From: a virus | Lineage: Duplodnaviria; Caudoviricetes | Strand: one strand, 5' to 3' | Length of the DNA stretch: 64,000 nt | Virus record (IMG/VR): IMGVR_UViG_642555159_000003 | Span: 25,885-89,884 of that record | In this document: piece after piece, positions 7,672-62,970 of the stretch | Layout: every line of letters starts with the position of its first letter | Numbering within the stretch: the stretch's first letter is position 1 | Position numbers and translations under genes: made by a program | The notes under the pieces: model-generated | The model's database searches: none | Told to the model about the DNA's origin: nothing | What the model saw: only the letters and a program-made list of their open reading frames with translations

Positions 7672-7742
7672 ATGTTGAAGCCCCAACTGCTCGAACAGCT
7701 AGGGCTTCAGTGTCAAATGATTCCAGCGAAGGAAATATCGAC
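7672..7742 (-). ncRNA. sar-like antisense RNA to the antirepressor RBS
   Basis: GAAGCCC-CAACTG...CAG..-GGGCTTC hairpin (7677-7708) between arc and ant as in P22 sar; antisense extended -10 TGcTACAAT inside ant codons 3-5 (7749-7757). Confidence 0.65.
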
Positions 7743-11812: not shown

Positions 11813-11851
11813 AATGACCTCACTGATTTTTTCGAAGTACCACTATCGGAG

Positions 11852-11934
11852 TGGTGCCGGGAGGTTCGAAACGGCTCAGTGAGACCGCGGACTTATTCCC
11901 CGTAAGGGTGTTGTATTCGTCGCCCTCCCGACAT
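11852..11934 (-). ncRNA. c4-like antisense RNA
   Basis: 5' GTCGGGAGG pairs with 3' CCTCCCGGC-ACCA; contains CACTGAG and GTTTCGA complementary to flanking target boxes. Confidence 0.8.
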
Positions 11935-35934: not shown

Positions 35935-36738
35935 GTGAAGCTTGAATCTGCGCTCAGACATTTTAGTCCTCAGGGAATGCACATCAGCGACGACGTGAAA
36001 GGAACCTCTCCGGATCGTCTCACCGGTACAGATGTAATGGCGGCTATTGGTACCACCAGCAGCCGCGCGCGGTTTGGTCTGGCCGCTTTCTTCGGAAAGG
36101 CCGGGATCAGCAAAACGGATGAACAACAGGCTGTGCAGGCGCTGGCGCGTCACGCGATGGATACTGCACCGAAGAACGTGCGCAAAGCTGCAGGTGGTGA
36201 ATTTGGCTGGTGTATGCTGGTACTGGCGCAGTTTGCCTTTGCTGAGTATTCCCGTTCGGCAGCTACCAGCGTGACCTGTCACACCTGCAAAGGCAGCGGA
36301 TTAACCTCTCAGTATGAGGATGTGATAAAACATCCTGGAGTCTTCAACTCTGACGGTATGGAAATCGTGCCTCCGAAAATCAAGCACGAACTGGTCAGGC
36401 GTGCATGTGTGGCATGTAACGGTAAAGGTGAGCTGTTCGCCCGGTGCCGTTGCGGTGGAAAAGGTGAAGTGCTCGACCGTATTGCGACAAAAGAAAGAGG
36501 TGTACCGGTGTTCAAAACCTGTGAACGCTGTTCCGGAAATGGTTTTTCTCCGGTACCCTCTACGGCTGCATATAAAGCGATTCTCAGGCGAGTTCCGGAA
36601 TTACATGTCAGAACATGGACCCGCAACTGGAAACCATTCCTGGAGGCGCTGGTAGATATTTGTTACCGGGAAGAGCGTAAGGCTGATGCTGCTTTTCAGA
36701 ATGCGACCAGTTTTAGCGATGATTTCAACAAAATTTAG
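35935..36738 (+). CDS. Late antiterminator Q (Cys-rich Gifsy/Qin type)
   Basis: MKLESALRHFSPQGM...LTGTDVMAAIG, multiple CxxCxGxG motifs, WTRNWKPF. Confidence 0.9.
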   Translation: MKLESALRHFSPQGMHISDDVKGTSPDRLTGTDVMAAIGTTSSRARFGLAAFFGKAGISKTDEQQAVQALARHAMDTAPKNVRKAAGGEFGWCMLVLAQFAFAEYSRSAATSVTCHTCKGSGLTSQYEDVIKHPGVFNSDGMEIVPPKIKHELVRRACVACNGKGELFARCRCGGKGEVLDRIATKERGVPVFKTCERCSGNGFSPVPSTAAYKAILRRVPELHVRTWTRNWKPFLEALVDICYREERKADAAFQNATSFSDDFNKI

Positions 36739-36757
36739 TATTTTCACGACATATAGC

Positions 36758-36796
36758 TTGATTTTGTCTGAAACTGTCGTGTATGCTTCTAATCAT
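36758..36796 (+). promoter_or_regulatory. pR'-like late promoter
   Basis: TTGATT(36758)-18-TATGCT(36782) right after Q with -10-like AATCAT downstream. Confidence 0.55.
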
Positions 36797-36829
36797 GTGA
36801 AGTTGTACCTAAACAAAATGAATCATCGA

Positions 36830-36856
36830 AACCCTGCCGCCTGGTGGGGTTTTTTA
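36830..36856 (+). terminator. tR'-like terminator
   Basis: ACCCTGCC-GCCT-GGTGGGGT + T run ~50 nt after the promoter. Confidence 0.75.
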
Positions 36857-37258
36857 TGACTCACTGTTTATTGATGTTTGTCTGAGATTGTTGCGTTTGT
36901 GTGGATGCTCAATCCAACGGATATTAATACCAGGATGATTTTTATAGAATATCCTTGCTATTTCACGGGCACAGAAATGGATCGAATCAAAAGCGTCTTC
37001 ACCGCTTGAATGCATATATAAAGACAGTGCATCATTGTTAATGAGATAATGCAGCCACACTCCACCGTAATACCAGCACGTGATATTTTTATAATCGACG
37101 GTAGTGGTTCCCTTTTCTTGGTCATTTAACCATTGAATCAGTGTTTCCTCTGTATTCTGATTTGTATCTGAAGTGACAATGGCTTCCAGAAGGACATCAT
37201 TCCTGTATATGTATCTCCTGCCTTCCCAGGAGCGGCTGATTTTATAATATCGGGGCAT
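36854..37258 (-). CDS. Hypothetical moron protein (start 37258, alt. 37282/37321)
   Basis: AT-rich antisense ORF in late leader, convergent on tR'. Confidence 0.7.
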   Translation of the reverse strand: MPRYYKISRSWEGRRYIYRNDVLLEAIVTSDTNQNTEETLIQWLNDQEKGTTTVDYKNITCWYYGGVWLHYLINNDALSLYMHSSGEDAFDSIHFCAREIARIFYKNHPGINIRWIEHPHKRNNLRQTSINSES

Positions 37259-37509
37259 ATTTATTCTCAGATGATTTAGCATTTCTGGTAAAAAACGCTC
37301 ACCGGAGTGAGCGGGCAGCAACTACTATAAAGACACTCGGGAATTACACAGATATTGCTTTTGTTTACCCCTCATAAAGCCGGGCAAAGGTCGCTTTATA
37401 ACTGAGGGGCCTGTGCAGCGGAACACAATCTACAGGTCATTGTTGCCAGACGTGAGCAGATAATTCTTAAAATAATAAACATGGTAAATTATCATGTTAT
37501 GTTATTGCG

Positions 37510-37633
37510 GTTGCAGTGAATCCCCCTGGGCGGTGGGGCGTAACTGGTTTTCAATGGAAATAGCTGTTTATTTGCTACGCGAGTCACGGTATAGCCAGCC
37601 AAAGATTCACCGGGAGGCACCCGGCACTGCAGC
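37510..37633 (+). ncRNA. Four-way-junction structured RNA, copy 1
   Basis: GTTGCAGTG/CACTGCAGC closing stem; CCCC..GGGG; CCGGG-AGGCA-CCCGG; terminator 37662-37687. Confidence 0.65.
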
Positions 37634-37904
37634 ATACTGATAACAAATATAGCGTGTCCCAAAGGCTCACTTCGGTGGGCCTTTTTTACAGGCGAAAAAA
37701 AGCCCGCTACAGAGAGCGGGCACCTGTATCGTCGCAAAATAATGCCAAAGAGATATAAGGTTCTACAAATGTTCCCGTAAAGAACATAGCCTTAATCAAA
37801 ACTTATGTAAACTTTTATCCGTAGTGCAGTAGACCTTCTTGTTTCTTAGAGCGTGGAGGATGTCTGCTGTTAAAGTTTTACTTTAGTAAGCCGATAAAAA
37901 CACA

Positions 37905-38010
37905 GTTATGGTGAATCCCCCTGAGCGGCGGGGCGACCATTCAAATATATGTTCCTCGCGAACCATGTCGACTGGTATGTGGTTCACCGGGAGGCACCGG
38001 GCACCGTAAC
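37905..38010 (+). ncRNA. Four-way-junction structured RNA, copy 2
   Basis: GTTATGGTG/CACCGTAAC closing stem; same internal hairpins. Confidence 0.65.
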
Positions 38011-38016
38011 AACTGA

Positions 38017-38085
38017 CCGCCACTGGCTCACCCGGACAGATTTCTAAGCTGTAGGTACGAGGTTCAACTCCCCGGTGGCGGACCA
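38017..38085 (+). pseudogene. Degenerate tRNA-Arg(UCU) lacking part of D/anticodon arm
   Basis: Perfect CCGCCAC/GTGGCGG acceptor stem + ACCA, GGTTCAACTCC T-arm, TTTCTAA loop; only 69 nt. Confidence 0.7.
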
Positions 38086-38345
38086 TATATCCCGTGTAGA
38101 TCCGCTGGTCACGCGGCGGCGGTGGCCCATCGTTACAGGGCAAATTTCAGGCAGAAAAAAACCGCCTAAGGGAAGGAAGGCGGGCAGTAAATACTGAACT
38201 TGAATAAGAAGTAATATGTCAACACTGGAGGTCTACACACTCAGCAGAATTGTGTAGCCTTCAACACCTTGCCTGATTTTCATGGTTAAGTTAAACAGAT
38301 AAATCCTAAATTAGTAAACCATGTAAATTATCATGTTATGGTAAT

Positions 38346-38464
38346 GATGTTGCGGTGAATCCCGTTAGCACGGGGCATAAATGGTTAACCTGCTTATCAT
38401 GTGTGATGCGAGTCATTGTATAACCATTCAGTGGCTCACCGGGTAGCGTCGGCACTGCAACATC
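38346..38464 (+). ncRNA. Four-way-junction structured RNA, copy 3
   Basis: GATGTTGCGGTG/CACTGCAACATC closing stem; CCCG/CGGG; AATGGTTA/TAACCATT; terminator 38487-38514. Confidence 0.65.
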
Positions 38465-38561
38465 TACTCTACTCATTACTTAACTCAAGGCTACTTCGGT
38501 AGCCTTTTCTTTTCCACTCACCCGATACCCGGGTAAACAGTCTCCCGGACAGGGGGAGGTC

Positions 38562-38906
38562 ATGAAAATGCACTTTGATCCCCATTCGTGGGACAGTTGG
38601 ATCGAACTTTTTCAAAGCTGGTGGCGGGGAGACGTACCCATTGGCGGCGTTGTTATGGCAATCGTTGTTGCGTTTTTCCGCATGGTCTATAACGGCAGCA
38701 GCTGGAAAGAAACGCTGTTTGAAGGGTTGCTGTGTGGTTCCCTGACCCTGACGGCGGTTTCTGCGCTGGATTATTTTGATGTGCCGAAAAGTCTGACAAT
38801 AGCCATTGGCGGCACTATCGGGTTTATCGGCGTGAAGAAAATCAGCACCATCATTTCAACGTATTTCAGTAACCGCTTTGGCGGTGGCAACCCCCCACAG
38901 GTTTAA
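38562..38906 (+). CDS. Holin (lambda-type) with Met-Lys-Met dual start
   Basis: MKM start, three hydrophobic segments, GGFIG-like IGFIGV motif. Confidence 0.9.
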   Translation: MKMHFDPHSWDSWIELFQSWWRGDVPIGGVVMAIVVAFFRMVYNGSSWKETLFEGLLCGSLTLTAVSALDYFDVPKSLTIAIGGTIGFIGVKKISTIISTYFSNRFGGGNPPQV

Positions 38907-38908
38907 TC

Positions 38909-39523
38909 ATGAATGAGTCACAATTTCAGCAGGCGGCTGGTATCAGCGCCAGGCTTTCTGCGCGCTGGTATCCACACATTGATGCGGCAATGAGCGAATT
39001 CGGTATTACTGCTCCACTGGATCAGGCAATGTTCATTGCTCAGGCGGGACATGAAAGCGCTGGTTTTACAAGGCTGGTGGAGAGCTTCAATTATTCGGTG
39101 GAGGCGCTGAAGAAGACGTTTGGTAAACGCCTGACGCCGTATCAGTGCGAAATGCTGGGGCGTATTGATGATCGCCAGGTTGCCCACCAGCCGCAAATAG
39201 CCAATCTGGTTTACGGTGGCCGCATGGGTAACAAAGACGCCGGAGATGGCTGGAAGTATCGCGGGCGTGGGCTTATCCAGATTACCGGGCTGGAGAATTA
39301 CACCAGATGTGGCGTTGCCCTGAAACTGGATCTGGTGGCGAATCCGGGACAGCTTGAGCTGGAAAGTCATGCCGCCCGATCCGCAGCGTGGTTTTTTGTG
39401 ACTAGAGGGTGTCTGAAATACTCCGGCGACCTGGTACGTGTTACGCAGATCATCAACGGAGGGCAGAACGGCATCGGTGACAGGCGAGAGCGCTTTGAAA
39501 AAGCAAAATCGGTGCTGGTATGA
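38909..39523 (+). CDS. Endolysin, glycoside hydrolase family 19
   Basis: [30 protein letters not shown] motifs. Confidence 0.92.
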
Positions 39524-40056
39524 CTCTGTTACCTGCTCTTCTGAAAAGATACTGGTTGCAGCTGGTCTTTATTTTGCTGATGGCTGGTACGTTTATCGCC
39601 GGTAATGTCTGGAGTGACAGGGGCTGGCAAAAAAAATGGGCAGAACGCGACAGCGCTGAATCCTCTCAGGAGGTCAACGCCCAGACCGCCGCCCGTATTA
39701 TTGAACAGGGCCGCATTATTGCCCGTGATGAGGCTGTAAAAGATGCACAAGCACAAGCCGCTAAATCTGCTGCCACTGCTGCTGGCCTGTCTGCCACTGT
39801 TAGCCAGTTGCGCACCGAAGCAACAAAGCTTGCCGCCCGCCTGGACGCCGCAAAACACACCGCAGATCTTGCCGCTTCCGTCAGAAGCAAAACAACCGAC
39901 GCCACCGCCGGAATGCTTGCCGACATGCTCGGAGATATTGCAGCAGAAGCTAAACGATATGCTGCAATCGCTGACGAACGCTACCAGGCAGGAGTGACGT
40001 GTGAGCGTATTTACGAGTCTGTGAGGCAGTCGAATAACAACAGGGTTACACGATGA
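39520..40056 (+). CDS. Inner-membrane spanin (Rz-like)
   Basis: N-terminal TM + coiled coil; C-terminal TCERIY. Confidence 0.85.
39743..39997 (+). CDS. Outer-membrane spanin lipoprotein (Rz1-like), embedded
   Basis: LASC lipobox, Pro-rich, in alternate frame inside Rz. Confidence 0.8.
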
Positions 40057-60291: not shown

Positions 60292-62970
60292 ATGCCAGTA
60301 CTTATTTCCGGCGTACTGAAAGATGCCACGGGAACGCCGGTACAGAACTGCACCATTCAGCTGAAGGCCTGCCGGACCAGTACGACGGTGGTCGTGAATA
60401 CGGTGGCATCGGAAAATCCGGATGACGCCGGGCGCTACAGCATGGATGTGGAGCAGGGGCAGTACACTGTCACGCTCCTGGTGGAAGGGTATCCCCCGTC
60501 ACATGCCGGAGTTATTACGGTTTACGATGATTCAAAGCCGGGCACCCTGAATGATTTTCTGGGGGCCATGACGGAAGACGACGTCCGCCCGGAGGCGCTG
60601 CGGCGTTTTGAGGCGATGGTGGAAGAAGTTGCCCGCCAGGCATCGGAGGCATCGCGGAATGCCACCTCCGCAGGGCAGGCATCTGAACAGGCGCAGACAT
60701 CAGCAGGTCAGGCAGCGGAAAGCGCCACGGCAGCAGTGAATGCAGCCGGAGCGGCAGAAGCATCAGCCACACAGGCAGCCTCATCCGCAGCATCTGCGGA
60801 GAGCAGCGCAGGTACGGCGACCACAAAAGCCGGGGAGGCATCAGCCAGCGCGGCGTCGGCTGACACAGCCAGAACGGCAGCAGCCGCATCGGCAGCCGCA
60901 GCGAAAACATCTGAAGCGAATGCAGATGCCTCCCGTACTGCCGCCGGCGATTCAGCTGCTGCCGCAGCCGCCAGCGCGACGGCGGCGCAGACATCAGCAG
61001 CGCGCGCCGGAGCATCCGAAACCGCCGCGAAGATGTCAGAAACGCAGGCGGCCTCCAGTGCCGGTGATGCAGGTGCGTCAGCCACTGCGGCGGCAGCGTC
61101 GGAAAAGGCGGCAGCCGCATCGGCAGCCGCAGCAAAAATATCTGAGACAAACGCAGCAACGTCAGCAAGTACAGCAGCAGCCAGCGCAACAGCCGCCTCG
61201 TCATCAGCATCGGAGGCATCCAATCACGCCGCCGCATCTGATACCAGCGCATCACTGGCGGCGCAAAGCAGTACTGCTGCCGGAGCAGCAGCCACCAGAG
61301 CAGAAGATGCCGCAAAACGGGCAGAAGACATCGCGGACGTGATTTCCCTGGAAGATGCCAGCCTGACGAAAAAAGGTATCGTTAAGTTAAGCAGTGCCAC
61401 GGACAGTGACAGCGAAGCGCTGGCAGCCACACCAAAGGCGGTAAAAACCGTTATGGGTGAGGTGCAGACCAAAGCGCCGCTGGACAGCCCGGCATTCACT
61501 GGAACGCCGACCACACCGACGCCGCCAGACGATGCTAAAGGGCTTCAGACAGCAAACGCGGAGTTTGTCCGCAAACTGATTGCCGCGCTGGTTGGTTCCG
61601 TACCGGAGTCACTGGACACCCTGCAGGAACTGGCGGACGCGCTGGGTAACGATCCGAGCTTTGCCACCACTGTACTGAATAAACTGGCGGGCAAGCAGCC
61701 GCTGGACGATACACTGACGGCGCTGTCAGGAAAAAGCGTTGACGGTCTTATCGAATACGTTGGTTTACGGGAAACCATAAATCACGCCGCCGATGCATTA
61801 CTAAAATCGCAGAACGGCGGAGATATTCAGGACAAAAAACAATTTGCGAGAACTATCGGCGCTGTGACTTCAACTACAATTTCACTTGGTGAATCAGGCT
61901 GGTTCAAAATCGCCACGGTTGTAATGCCGCAGGCTACATCAACAGCGGTGATTAAACTGTACGGTGGGGCGGGGTTTAACGCTGGTTCACCTGAACAGGC
62001 GGCAATCAGCGAACTGGTATTGCGTGCCAGTAATGGTTCACCTGTTGGAATAACTGCCACGTTGTGGAGACGCTCGCCTGCTGCGGCTAACGAGGTCGCA
62101 TGGGTTAATACATCAGGCGACACCTACGATATTTATATTAATATCGGCCAGTATGCGTACTGGTTAATTGCGCAATATGATTACACCGGTAATGCAAATG
62201 TCACGCTGCACAGTACACCTGAATATTCATCAGTCCAGCCGGGGGACTCAACCAGCGGTCAGACATATACACTGTTTAATAGCCTGATGAAACCCACTCC
62301 CGAAGATGTCGGAGCGCTGTCAGTTAATGGAGGAAGGCTAAACGGCCCGTTAGGCATTGGTACTGACAATGCGCTTGGTGGTAATTCGATTGTGTTCGGC
62401 GATAACGACACAGGAATTAAACAGAACGGTGACGGGATACTGGATACGTTTGCGAATAGCCAGCACACCGTTCGTGTCGCTCCCGGTGAAATGCAGGTTC
62501 TGGGAGCCATTCGCGCAGGCAATGCCAAACGAATGACCATGACTAGCTCAAATAACTCCGTGCTGAATGCTCAATTTCATTTGTGGGGTGACGGAAATCG
62601 ACCAACGGTTATTGAGCTGGATGACGACCAGGGATGGCATTTATACAGCCAGCGTAATACCGATGGCAGTATTCAGTTTGTTGTTAATGGACAAGTTATT
62701 CCGGATAATTACGGTAATTTCGACGCCCGTTATTTAACATCAGGAAACGTATATACAAAAGGCGAATCAGATAATCGTTATGTCCAAAATATCCAGCGTG
62801 GCGCCCCAGTATGGCCGGGCAAAGTAGATGAATATGGACCTGCAGAAGCGCCTGCTGGTTGCTTTTTAACACAAGCCAGACATGACCCAACAACAGCATA
62901 CGGTGTGACATTTGCGTATCGACCGTTGCAAATGTGGGTGGGTAATGGCTGGCGTACAATTAATGGATGA
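60292..62970 (+). CDS. Side tail fibre (Stf-like)
   Basis: Lambda stf N-terminus (ISGVLKD...GRYSMDVE.GQY), Ala/Ser repeats, EDASLTKKGIVKLSSAT repeat. Confidence 0.92.
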   Translation: MPVLISGVLKDATGTPVQNCTIQLKACRTSTTVVVNTVASENPDDAGRYSMDVEQGQYTVTLLVEGYPPSHAGVITVYDDSKPGTLNDFLGAMTEDDVRPEALRRFEAMVEEVARQASEASRNATSAGQASEQAQTSAGQAAESATAAVNAAGAAEASATQAASSAASAESSAGTATTKAGEASASAASADTARTAAAASAAAAKTSEANADASRTAAGDSAAAAAASATAAQTSAARAGASETAAKMSETQAASSAGDAGASATAAAASEKAAAASAAAAKISETNAATSASTAAASATAASSSASEASNHAAASDTSASLAAQSSTAAGAAATRAEDAAKRAEDIADVISLEDASLTKKGIVKLSSATDSDSEALAATPKAVKTVMGEVQTKAPLDSPAFTGTPTTPTPPDDAKGLQTANAEFVRKLIAALVGSVPESLDTLQELADALGNDPSFATTVLNKLAGKQPLDDTLTALSGKSVDGLIEYVGLRETINHAADALLKSQNGGDIQDKKQFARTIGAVTSTTISLGESGWFKIATVVMPQATSTAVIKLYGGAGFNAGSPEQAAISELVLRASNGSPVGITATLWRRSPAAANEVAWVNTSGDTYDIYINIGQYAYWLIAQYDYTGNANVTLHSTPEYSSVQPGDSTSGQTYTLFNSLMKPTPEDVGALSVNGGRLNGPLGIGTDNALGGNSIVFGDNDTGIKQNGDGILDTFANSQHTVRVAPGEMQVLGAIRAGNAKRMTMTSSNNSVLNAQFHLWGDGNRPTVIELDDDQGWHLYSQRNTDGSIQFVVNGQVIPDNYGNFDARYLTSGNVYTKGESDNRYVQNIQRGAPVWPGKVDEYGPAEAPAGCFLTQARHDPTTAYGVTFAYRPLQMWVGNGWRTING

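Follow-up and report, generated by a model that had tools for sequence, protein, structure and literature searches.

STnc100-family small RNA repeats with a covarying pseudoknot between Q and the holin gene of a Fels-1-like prophage

The 64,000-nt stretch of Caudoviricetes DNA analysed here (the window) carries three RNA repeats on the + strand between Q and the holin gene (Table 1). The setting is that of a lambdoid prophage late region, with Q upstream, holin, endolysin and spanin genes downstream, and synteny with the prophage Fels-1. A late-promoter-like sequence and a tR'-like terminator were read just after Q, and two putative minus-strand transcription units are interspersed with the repeats. 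Minus-strand ORFs over the copies (37492-37737 and 37883-38143) were judged spurious, as they begin with TTG and 37883-38143 has no Pfam match. ARAGORN found no tRNA or tmRNA gene in the window.

Table 1. Features of the Q-holin interval and its flanks (positions in the window)
Feature	Position	Strand	Parts	Basis
Q	35935-36738			Pfam PF03589; phrog_127
Late-promoter-like sequence	36758-36787	+	TTGATT-18-TATGCT	Read from sequence; promoter assignment inferred
tR'-like terminator	36832-36856	+		Read from sequence
Copy 1, full-length STnc100 sRNA gene (candidate)	37480-37693	+	-10 motif box 37485-37501; P1 37510-37518/37625-37633; P2 37522-37525/37535-37538; pseudoknot 37544-37549/37593-37598; P4 37581-37585/37604-37608; P5 37610-37614/37620-37624; terminator 37662-37687	RF02076; own models R1 and R2, 85 bits
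Candidate convergent sRNA facing copy 1	37693-37811	-	Promoter-like TTTACA-17-TATGTT 37811-37783; terminator 37721-37702 and T run	Scan, sequence, fold
Copy 2, core only, no -10 motif or terminator	37894-38016	+	P1 37905-37913/38002-38010; P2 37917-37920/37930-37933; weakened pseudoknot 37936-37939/37973-37976; P4 37960-37968/37977-37985; P5 37987-38001, G-G mismatch	RF02076; own model R1, 84 bits
Degraded tRNA-Arg(UCU) gene (putative)	38017-38085	+	Six bases past copy 2	Alignment to intact phage tRNA-Arg(UCU) genes; fold
Second minus-strand terminator, candidate convergent transcript	38150-38262	-	Stem 38162-38183; T run down to about 38154; structured upstream stretch	Sequence; fold
Copy 3, full-length but divergent STnc100 sRNA gene (candidate)	38319-38515	+	-10 motif box 38324-38340; P1 38346-38357/38453-38464 (12 bp); P2 38361-38364/38371-38374; pseudoknot 38380-38387/38421-38428 (8 bp); P4 38410-38418/38429-38437; P5 38439-38442/38449-38452; terminator 38487-38513	RF02076; terminator by scan
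Holin	38562-38906	+		Context; phrog_126; Pfam (PF05106, PF00182, PF10721 for the lysis genes)
Endolysin	38909-39523		After holin	Pfam
Spanin-type gene	39520-40056		After endolysin	Pfam

The three repeats are members of the catalogued prophage sRNA family STnc100 (EcOnc27/PasD group). In cmscan against Rfam, RF02076 (STnc100) scored 136.8 bits for copy 1, 58.3 bits for copy 2 and 86.8 bits for copy 3, against a curated gathering cut-off of 47 bits. Copies 1 and 3 covered model positions 1-206, from the 5' leader to the 3' terminator hairpin; copy 2 aligned to positions 19-154 only, and is neither full-length nor provided with a terminator. The original prediction had assigned no named family and had stated that a strong match to a characterised Rfam family would remove novelty; as all three copies match above the cut-off, the repeats are therefore not novel by that standard. 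Identity among the three paralogues is 43-56%. At E <= 10 on both strands, no ribozyme, riboswitch, tRNA, AsxR or AgvB family was matched, and the few remaining Rfam matches had E values of about 1-8, far under their gathering scores. The finding is largely an ordinary one: the family is in Rfam, its E. coli type is present in 3086 of 5426 complete E. coli genomes, and the same array is found in the long-sequenced Fels-1. What this analysis adds is limited to a well-supported pseudoknot in the fold and to the decay of the middle copy, which is fused to a dead tRNA gene. RNA genes of the family are often overlaid by "hypothetical protein" calls in RefSeq.

The sequence confirmed the positions and strand first proposed for the three copies, and their compensating closing stems (P1), each with one G-U wobble that would give an A-C mismatch on the opposite strand. 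Also present as described were the AAU linker and CCCC/GGGG hairpin (P2; CCCG/CGGG in copy 3), the GCGA(G/A)(T/C)CA box, and the CCGGG-AGGCA-CCCGG hairpin (P5), which reads CCGGG...CCGGG with a G-G mismatch in copy 2 and CCGG-GUAGCG-UCGG in copy 3. The conserved-box pattern had three matches in the window and none in any of 100 shuffled versions. The helices of the proposed four-way-junction cloverleaf are there, but a plain cloverleaf is an incomplete description, the core being pseudoknotted. Likewise, the "variable long arm" with its box is not a single arm but comprises a pseudoknot strand, a variable hairpin, GCG and P4. The core would accordingly be ordered as P1, the AAU linker, P2, a strand of 6-8 nt pairing with the apical loop of P4, a hypervariable hairpin, GCG, P4, and P5 directly continuous with the 3' strand of P1; the segment after P2 is the first pseudoknot strand and the P4 loop the second. 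P1 was kept in the minimum free energy fold of every copy. Folding energy was rejected as evidence, since the single-sequence z-scores of copies 1 and 2 (-0.75 and -1.44) are unremarkable and the minus strand of copy 3 (-3.19) folds about as well as its plus strand (-3.47); structural support therefore comes from comparative data.

Covariation was assessed on a set of 99-100 distinct homologues drawn from the window, Fels-1 and 96 viral contigs (98 sources in all). The search pattern used to collect them prescribes parts of P2 and P5, so the invariance of these parts is to some extent built in. In model-based alignments, which are biased toward the fitted structure and in which related sequences inflate counts, changes on both sides were seen in 8 of 10 P1 pairs and 7 of 8 P4 pairs. 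The nested helices had 86.9% of cells paired and 17 of 27 pairs varying on both sides, a level reached by none of 500 shuffles, and their covariation score was 0.279, compared with 0.138 in shuffled and <= 0.09 in slid controls. RNAalifold recovered P1, P2 and P5 unaided from the raw MAFFT alignment, and the covariation claimed for the closing stem was upheld among about 100 distinct homologues. In 89 of 99 sequences the second pair of P4 is G-U, which fixes the strand.

The pseudoknot (6-8 bp) is the most strongly covarying helix in these homologues. All seven of its pairs vary on both sides, with 85% of cells paired and a covariation score of 0.361 versus 0.149 after shuffling. These columns were scored with a second model in which the pseudoknot is nested; a column-wise count failed on the MAFFT (A1) and P4-fitted (A2) alignments because three registers coexist. 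In an alignment-free comparison of cognate and non-cognate strand/loop partners from 49 representatives, the cognate duplex reached -8.6 kcal/mol versus -4.1 kcal/mol for non-cognate partners, and none of 10,000 permutations was as good. The pseudoknot measures 6-8 bp in 41 of the 49 representatives, and its 3' strand adjoins the 3' strand of P4 (L3 = 0) in 28. It is absent from the Rfam consensus line displayed by cmscan, where its 5' strand is paired differently, and a 2026 preprint on PasD and STnc100 (bioRxiv 10.64898/2026.05.13.724894) makes no mention of it. The published secondary structures of the family hence miss the helix with the strongest covariation in the RNA, which matters for mutants, probes and target prediction on EcOnc27, PasD and STnc100, RNAs linked to Shiga-toxin phages.

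While the helices covary, the junction bases AAU, GCG and UCA and the loops of P2 and P5 are near-invariant. The two loops switch jointly between subfamilies: CUGUGCGGA occurs with AGGCA, UUAGCA with GUAGCG, and UCAG with GAAA. Kissing between them was rejected: the main type allows only three Watson-Crick pairs and the copy 3 type allows none. The P2 loop was also considered as a CsrA-type GGA motif, a reading discarded because its final base varies (A, U or C).

In agreement with the original prediction, copies 1 and 3 have the appearance of independent sRNA genes, with a promoter-type -10 box and an intrinsic terminator in each candidate. A 17-nt motif is common to both, their -35 elements (TTAAAA) are weak, and the promoter scan returned TTAAAA-17-TATCAT for copy 1 and no promoter for copy 3. 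In several subfamilies, a TAAATT -10 box homologous to the motif in the window keeps a constant spacing to P1, and a TTGACA-like -35 element (TTGACA, TTGACG or TTGAAA) lies upstream of it with a 17-18 nt spacer. A terminator follows P1 at a median distance of 17.5 nt in 86 of 116 distinct homologous copies, and 30 have none. Autonomous transcription of copies 1 and 3 would use the sigma-70-type -10 box within the 17-nt motif and start a few bases upstream of P1, and the predicted RNAs, of about 175-195 nt, would comprise the pseudoknotted core (~120 nt) and an intrinsic terminator with a U tail, joined by 20-30 nt of single-stranded linker.

Both minus-strand terminators proposed earlier were found, and a convergent terminator recurs in 26 of 76 terminator-bearing homologues. 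Copy 1 and the candidate facing it, which has a promoter-like sequence, match the arrangement of an sRNA "dyad" in EHEC phages. The hairpin of the second minus-strand candidate was read directly from the sequence, its 10-nt loop being over the limit of the scanner; the minus strand of 38150-38262 folds with z = -2.96, and no convincing promoter was found for it. No Rfam family matched either candidate at E <= 10.

Copy 2 has lesions in two helices, the pseudoknot and P5, compared with its intact orthologues in Fels-1 and in locus L114. The segment immediately following it is, judging from the alignment, a tRNA-Arg(UCU) pseudogene. It retains a 7-bp acceptor stem, a UUUCUAA anticodon loop, a T-arm remnant and ACCA, and an 8-nt deletion has taken out the 3' side of the D stem together with the 5' side of the anticodon stem; neither ARAGORN nor Rfam (E <= 10) reported a complete tRNA there. 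In another locus (L094), an intact core is followed 44 nt later by tRNA-Arg(UCU). Copy 2 probably represents a terminator-less core formerly co-transcribed with tRNA-Arg(UCU), with core and tRNA both decaying here. In 51 of 98 loci, phage tRNA genes are found 0.05-2 kb from an STnc100 core and on its strand. Cores occur as tandem arrays of diverged paralogues, and their 3' partner may be a tRNA instead of a terminator.

We consider the repeats to be three old, diverged STnc100 paralogues with pseudoknotted cores, of which copies 1 and 3 are autonomous sRNA genes and copy 2 is decaying (probability about 0.8), in keeping with the initial suggestion of repeated phage small-RNA elements on the + strand. 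The interval would be the Q-holin region of a Fels-1-like Salmonella prophage, and its RNAs would belong to the family of EcOnc27/sRNA103 and, more distantly, PasD1/2. STnc100 relatives are published as discrete expressed sRNAs, and Hfq binding has been shown for most of them (PMC5331693, PMC8550237, PMC7873438). By analogy with these, the RNAs would associate with Hfq via the terminator and U tail, and would pair in trans with their targets using unpaired or variable parts. The conserved core would form a compact 5' domain, hiding the 5' end and stabilising or presenting the RNA. In the lysogen, the RNAs' own promoters would drive their synthesis; once the prophage is induced, polymerase modified by Q would pass the sRNA terminators and continue into the lysis genes.

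P2, P5 and their loops show much stronger conservation than the scaffold of an Hfq sRNA requires, which hints at a function beyond base pairing. One reading, rather unlikely in our estimate, is that the STnc100/PasD core is a distinct structured-RNA module with an activity of its own (protein capture, decoy or RNase protection) that is reused as a chassis. Such a module would be built of a P1/P5 stack, a P4/pseudoknot stack and the co-varying P2 and P5 loops, with variable hairpins and 3' tails (terminator or tRNA) plugged in, and the tandem arrays of late regions would then be cassette libraries rather than ordinary seed-plus-terminator sRNAs. It is also improbable that the core is itself the functional unit, as a protein-binding, decoy, nuclease-resistant or tRNA-linked RNA, with Hfq-mediated pairing secondary or incidental. 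The near-invariant junction bases and loops amid covarying helices would fit, as would the terminator-less quarter of copies (30 of 116) and the frequent same-strand tRNA genes, to which a core can be fused in place of a terminator. The joint change of the P2 and P5 loops points the same way but could be mere divergence. Against this proposal, the published relatives behave like Hfq-dependent sRNAs having many RNA partners (PMC8550237, PMC7873438). Besides STnc100, no Rfam family of established function (ribozyme, riboswitch or tRNA-like) was matched at E <= 10, and no self-cleavage motif of known type was seen in the repeats.

A role in cis, as processing sites or put-like antitermination RNAs tuning lysis timing, is highly improbable. 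In its favour, the repeats are situated downstream of the late promoter region and ahead of the holin gene, copy 2 lacks a promoter and would depend on read-through for its synthesis, and Q-modified polymerase must pass each terminator, so that the repeats could in principle gate late transcription. Against it, lambda-type Q requires no RNA element and acts via a DNA site in the late promoter region, copies 1 and 3 have promoter-type boxes and terminators of their own, family members are also found elsewhere than in late leaders, as in the case of those downstream of stx2B (PMC12370729, PMC12711010), and the copy number, from 1 to 5 among otherwise similar late regions, suggests swappable accessory cassettes. 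The processing or antitermination role first proposed for the repeats found no support, their relatives being published as discrete sRNAs.

HK022 put is a cis-acting, promoter-proximal two-hairpin RNA that has no terminator of its own and is needed for read-through; the elements in the window differ in having their own terminators, promoter-type boxes and a five-helix pseudoknotted fold, and the phage encodes Q. PasD1/2 of EPEC E2348/69 were discovered by RIL-seq, depend on Hfq for stability and are prophage-encoded near Q and the lysis genes (PMC8550237). According to their authors (PMC8550237; bioRxiv 10.64898/2026.05.13.724894), PasD and STnc100 share a consensus fold and ancestry, and PasD is too diverged for detection by BLAST. 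PasD copies are described by the authors as dispersed rather than tandem, whereas the window has three copies within 1 kb. In EDL933, RNA-seq reads were recorded for 11 STnc100-family copies, and a northern blot confirmed one of them (PMC5331693). The Hfq-binding sRNA EcOnc27/sRNA103 was detected with Hfq-CRAC and on northern blots; it coincides with an STnc100 annotation in the lambdoid late region and is paired with the convergent AsxR (PMC7873438, PMC12711010). In the Stx2 phages of EHEC Sakai and EDL933 it is part of the "dyads" between the late promoter and the lysis genes, and copy 1 likewise faces a convergent terminator. The equivalence of EcOnc27 with the repeats rests on the published descriptions. 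Unlike the Stx2 phages, the window carries no stx genes in the Q-holin interval, and neither the AsxR nor the AgvB family of Rfam matches its minus-strand partners.

STnc100 is a gammaproteobacterial prophage sRNA family with copies in phage Fels-1 of Salmonella (LT2). Fels-1 has the same three STnc100 elements in the same order between Q and holin. Its DNA match to the window is 88.5% identical overall and 99% in the spacer between copies 1 and 2, whereas the third copies are only 63% identical and their pseudoknot helices are entirely different (AAUGGUUA/UAACCAUU in the window, UGAUCA type in Fels-1). Fels-1 also has an extra ORF between copies 2 and 3 that the window lacks. The tRNA cluster ileZ-argN-argO of lambdoid late regions occupies the same slot and strand as the STnc100 cores. 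The core is not itself a tRNA: ARAGORN and the Rfam tRNA model were negative, and unlike these tRNAs it contains a pseudoknot, lacks an anticodon arm, and has a 5-nt P5 loop where a tRNA has its T loop. The tRNAs of this type near STnc100 cores are tRNA(CAU), tRNA-Arg(UCG) and tRNA-Arg(UCU), of which the window appears to keep a dead tRNA-Arg(UCU).

All three folded RNA repeats located between the antiterminator Q gene and the lysis cassette (37476-38514) belong to a known RNA family. An Rfam scan of the whole window matched copies 1, 2 and 3 to RF02076 (STnc100) with 136.8, 58.3 and 86.8 bits, respectively, against a cut-off of 47 bits. Copies 1 and 3 span all 206 model positions, terminator included, and copy 2 spans model positions 19-154 only. 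Salmonella phage Fels-1, the phage record nearest to the window (88.5% identity over 86% of the query), has three corresponding RF02076 matches in the same order. The repeats seen in the original prediction are real and were correctly observed, but it could name no family and held that a strong Rfam match would remove novelty; STnc100 is such a match. The additions made here are modest: support for a pseudoknot, a decaying copy linked to a tRNA, and the tandem-array and dyad context.

Salmonella LT2 carries multiple copies of the STnc100 family (PMC10794520), and E. coli O157:H7 EDL933 has 11 family copies with RNA-seq reads, one of them also detected by northern blot (PMC5331693). One family copy, situated downstream of stx2B, overlaps the Hfq-binding sRNA EcOnc27/sRNA103 (PMC12711010, PMC7873438), and STnc100 was detected in outer-membrane vesicles of STEC (PMC12370729). 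PasD1/2 of EPEC, discovered by RIL-seq and confirmed by northern blot, need Hfq for stability (PMC8550237), and a common fold and ancestry with STnc100 have been reported (bioRxiv 10.64898/2026.05.13.724894). None of these reports establishes a function for the family. The E. coli type of STnc100 RNA was present in 3086 of 5426 complete RefSeq genomes, with as many as 10 places in one genome. Among the E. coli records listed (H6-H13), the match was overlain by a 'hypothetical protein' feature, not an ncRNA.

Features of the window, which is part of an 89.9-kb IMG/VR provirus, are listed in the table. The promoter-like element and hairpin at 36758-36856 resemble the late promoter of lambdoid phages followed by the tR' terminator, an arrangement that would yield a 6S-like leader RNA of ~60 nt. 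On the minus strand, a terminator (37313-37296) precedes the moron gene's ATG (37258), and a promoter-like ATAACA-17-TATTAT is found at 37500-37472. These elements in 37290-37500 could constitute a leader/attenuator of ~175 nt or else an independent RNA on the minus strand that diverges from copy 1.

Features in and around the repeat region, and other Rfam matches in the window
Feature	Position	Strand	Remarks
sar RNA	7673-7741	-	48 bits, above Rfam threshold
sRNA-Xcc1	11848-11932	-	68.6 bits, above Rfam threshold
Antiterminator Q gene	35935-36738	+	Pfam PF03589, phrog_127
Promoter-like TTGATT-18-TATGCT	36758-36787	+	just 3' of Q
Short hairpin and T run	36832-36856	+	~95-118 nt after Q stop codon
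Gene of unknown function (termed moron gene)	36857-37258	-	phrog_22299; between Q region and the three repeats
Copy 1	37510-37633	+
Candidate sRNA, ~85 nt	37693-37811	-	promoter-like TTTACA-17-TATGTT and terminator; convergent with copy 1
Copy 2	37905-38010	+
Degraded tRNA-Arg(UCU) gene	38017-38085	+	by alignment to intact phage tRNA-Arg(UCU) genes; six bases after P1 of copy 2
Second terminator, CCGCCU..AGGCGG and U7	38150-38262	-	after a well-folding stretch, z = -2.96
Copy 3	38346-38464	+
Holin	38562-38906	+	lysis cassette
Glycoside-hydrolase endolysin	38909-39523	+	lysis cassette
DUF2514 spanin-type gene	39520-40056	+	lysis cassette
isrG	61040-61318	-	320.7 bits, above Rfam threshold

The predicted layout was found in the sequence, with every feature on its proposed position or no more than two bases away: three closing stems (P1) with one G-U each, the AAU linker, the CCCC/GGGG hairpin (P2), the GCGA..CA box, the CCGGG hairpin (P5), the 17-nt upstream motif common to copies 1 and 3, and two terminators on each strand. 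The conserved-box pattern had three matches in the window and none in 100 shuffles. As the folding energies of single copies were not distinctive, the case rests on homologue comparison. The pattern retrieved 120 viral-contig stretches, giving 98 distinct cores, and 49 representatives with <93% identity were aligned with MAFFT. A covariance model built from this alignment with P1, P2, P4 and P5 (R1) yielded 138 matches, 99 of them distinct, in 98 sources. Eight of 10 P1 pairs change on both sides among the 99 distinct homologues, bearing out the proposed compensation in the closing stem, as do 7 of 8 pairs in P4, and 86.9% of cells pair overall. The covariation score was 0.279 versus 0.138 in shuffles (0/500 as high), and fell to 0.09 or less when partners were slid by 1-3 columns. 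P2 and P5 were nearly invariant, in part because portions of both were prescribed by the pattern used for retrieval; RNAalifold on the raw MAFFT alignment recovered P1, P2 and P5 without structural input. The second P4 position is a G-U pair in 89 of 99 sequences, which together with the closing-stem G-U pairs assigns the RNA to the plus strand, as had been proposed.

In nearly all homologues, the 6-8 nt following P2 and the apical loop of P4 are complementary, though the sequences themselves are diverse (AUCAGC/GCUGGU, CCAGUC/GACUGG, GCCAGGUC/GACCUGGC; in copy 3, AAUGGUUA/UAACCAUU). In an alignment-free test on duplex energies of strand/loop pairs from the 49 representatives, which formed 38 distinct helices, the cognate mean was -8.6 kcal/mol, versus -4.1 for non-cognate pairs and -2.8 for shuffled own loops, and a mean as low as the cognate one did not arise in any of 10,000 permutations. 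Of the 99 distinct sequences, 90 have an uninterrupted helix of 6 bp or more. In the alignment from a second covariance model with the pseudoknot nested instead of P4 (R2), all seven pseudoknot pairs change on both sides, 85% of cells pair, and the whole-structure covariation score was 0.361 versus 0.149 when shuffled. On this alignment, no other helix of the RNA combines so much variation with pairing; since the alignment was itself fitted to the structure, the alignment-free test provides cleaner evidence. The pseudoknot pairing is absent from the RF02076 consensus line as displayed by cmscan, and the word 'pseudoknot' is not used in the 2026 PasD/STnc100 preprint. Accordingly, the 'variable long arm' of the original prediction resolves into one strand of the pseudoknot, a hairpin that is genuinely variable (the pseudoknot strands lie 15-37 nt apart), the conserved GCG and P4. 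Among the 49 representatives, the pseudoknot helix has 6-8 bp in 41; in 28 its 3' strand joins the P4 3' strand without a spacer, and in 40 the opposite spacer measures 0-2 nt. This coherent geometry fits a P4/pseudoknot coaxial stack, in which, judging by general pseudoknot stereochemistry, the deep groove would be crossed by a short link.

Among the 116 distinct copies whose downstream sequence was long enough, 86 have a terminator-like hairpin after P1 (median distance 17.5 nt), and window copies 1 and 3 are of this class. Several subfamilies have a TAAATT -10 box at a fixed distance from P1, preceded at 17-18 nt by a TTGACA-like -35 hexamer (TTGACA, TTGACG or TTGAAA), and their transcripts would start at the P1 5' strand or slightly upstream of it. 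As the 17-nt motif of the window, TAAATTATCATGTTATG, includes an identical TAAATT box, it is best read as a -10 region plus initial transcribed bases, with predicted start sites near 37500 and 38340. A promoter scan pairs an overlapping TATCAT in this motif with TTAAAA; the -35 elements in the window are weak.

Copy 2 has neither a -10-type box nor a terminator. Compared with its intact orthologues (Fels-1 and L114, a viral contig locus), it has a G-to-T change that leaves the pseudoknot with four contiguous pairs (5' strand ACCAGUC to ACCAUUC), and its P5 has acquired a G-G mismatch through a C-to-G change. In Fels-1, copy 2 bears a separate lesion at an otherwise invariant position (GGUGAAU to GGCGAAU). 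The adjacent tRNA-Arg(UCU) remnant, called by neither ARAGORN nor the Rfam tRNA model, keeps the acceptor stem, the anticodon loop UUUCUAA and ACCA, and has an 8-nt deletion across the D-stem/anticodon-stem boundary. Genes for tRNA(CAU), tRNA-Arg(UCG) and tRNA-Arg(UCU) occur near cores on the same strand in 51 of 98 loci on other contigs, including an intact tRNA-Arg(UCU) 44 nt after the core in L094. Copy 2 is thus best read as a decaying core-tRNA unit. The remnant is also present in Fels-1, with its 3' end further degraded.

The three window copies share only 43-56% pairwise identity, and contigs elsewhere carry one to five copies. Copy 3 and its Fels-1 counterpart share 63% identity and differ in their pseudoknot helix, whereas the spacer between copies 1 and 2 is 99% identical to that of Fels-1, suggesting cassette-like replacement. 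Tandem arrays of three to five diverged cores, several without terminators, were seen in further viral contigs, at L041:4373-8522, L100:3824-12863, L011:366-995 and L019:1719-3286. Divergent members with replaced P2 and P5 loops (L010:3367-3485, with five identical cores in other loci, L095:2515-2633 and L085:3342-3500) keep P1 and P4. The L010/L095 type (P2, GCCUG-UCAG-CAGGC; P5, CCGG-GAAA-CCGG) also keeps the loop-to-upstream pseudoknot, and L085 has a different loop pair; the P2 and P5 loops change together across subfamilies.

The analysis of the window establishes which family the repeats belong to, their conserved pseudoknotted fold, the terminators and the genomic context. By analogy with their relatives, these RNAs would associate with Hfq and base-pair in trans. 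Their anatomy suggests that P1 buries the 5' end, that the core is a stabilising or presenting domain, and that specificity probably lies in the variable hairpin and in the 20-30 nt linker preceding the terminator; after induction, Q-modified polymerase would read through the terminators. A less likely reading, and the most novel of those left, is that the core has a function beyond base pairing. The originally proposed processing or antitermination role in cis found no support.

The copy 1 terminator is faced by a minus-strand terminator (37702-37721, GCCCGC..GCGGGC and U7) belonging to the candidate sRNA, which is 99% conserved in Fels-1. A convergent terminator lies within 60 nt in 26 of 76 terminator-bearing homologues. 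No convincing promoter was found for the second minus-strand terminator region, and the minus-strand partners in the window matched no Rfam family. In EHEC phages, 'dyads' of Hfq-binding sRNAs lie between the late promoter and the lysis genes (Tree et al. 2014, summarised in PMC7873438). Copy 1 and its convergent minus-strand candidate match that arrangement, the candidate occupying a position like that of AsxR/AgvB in the EHEC dyads.
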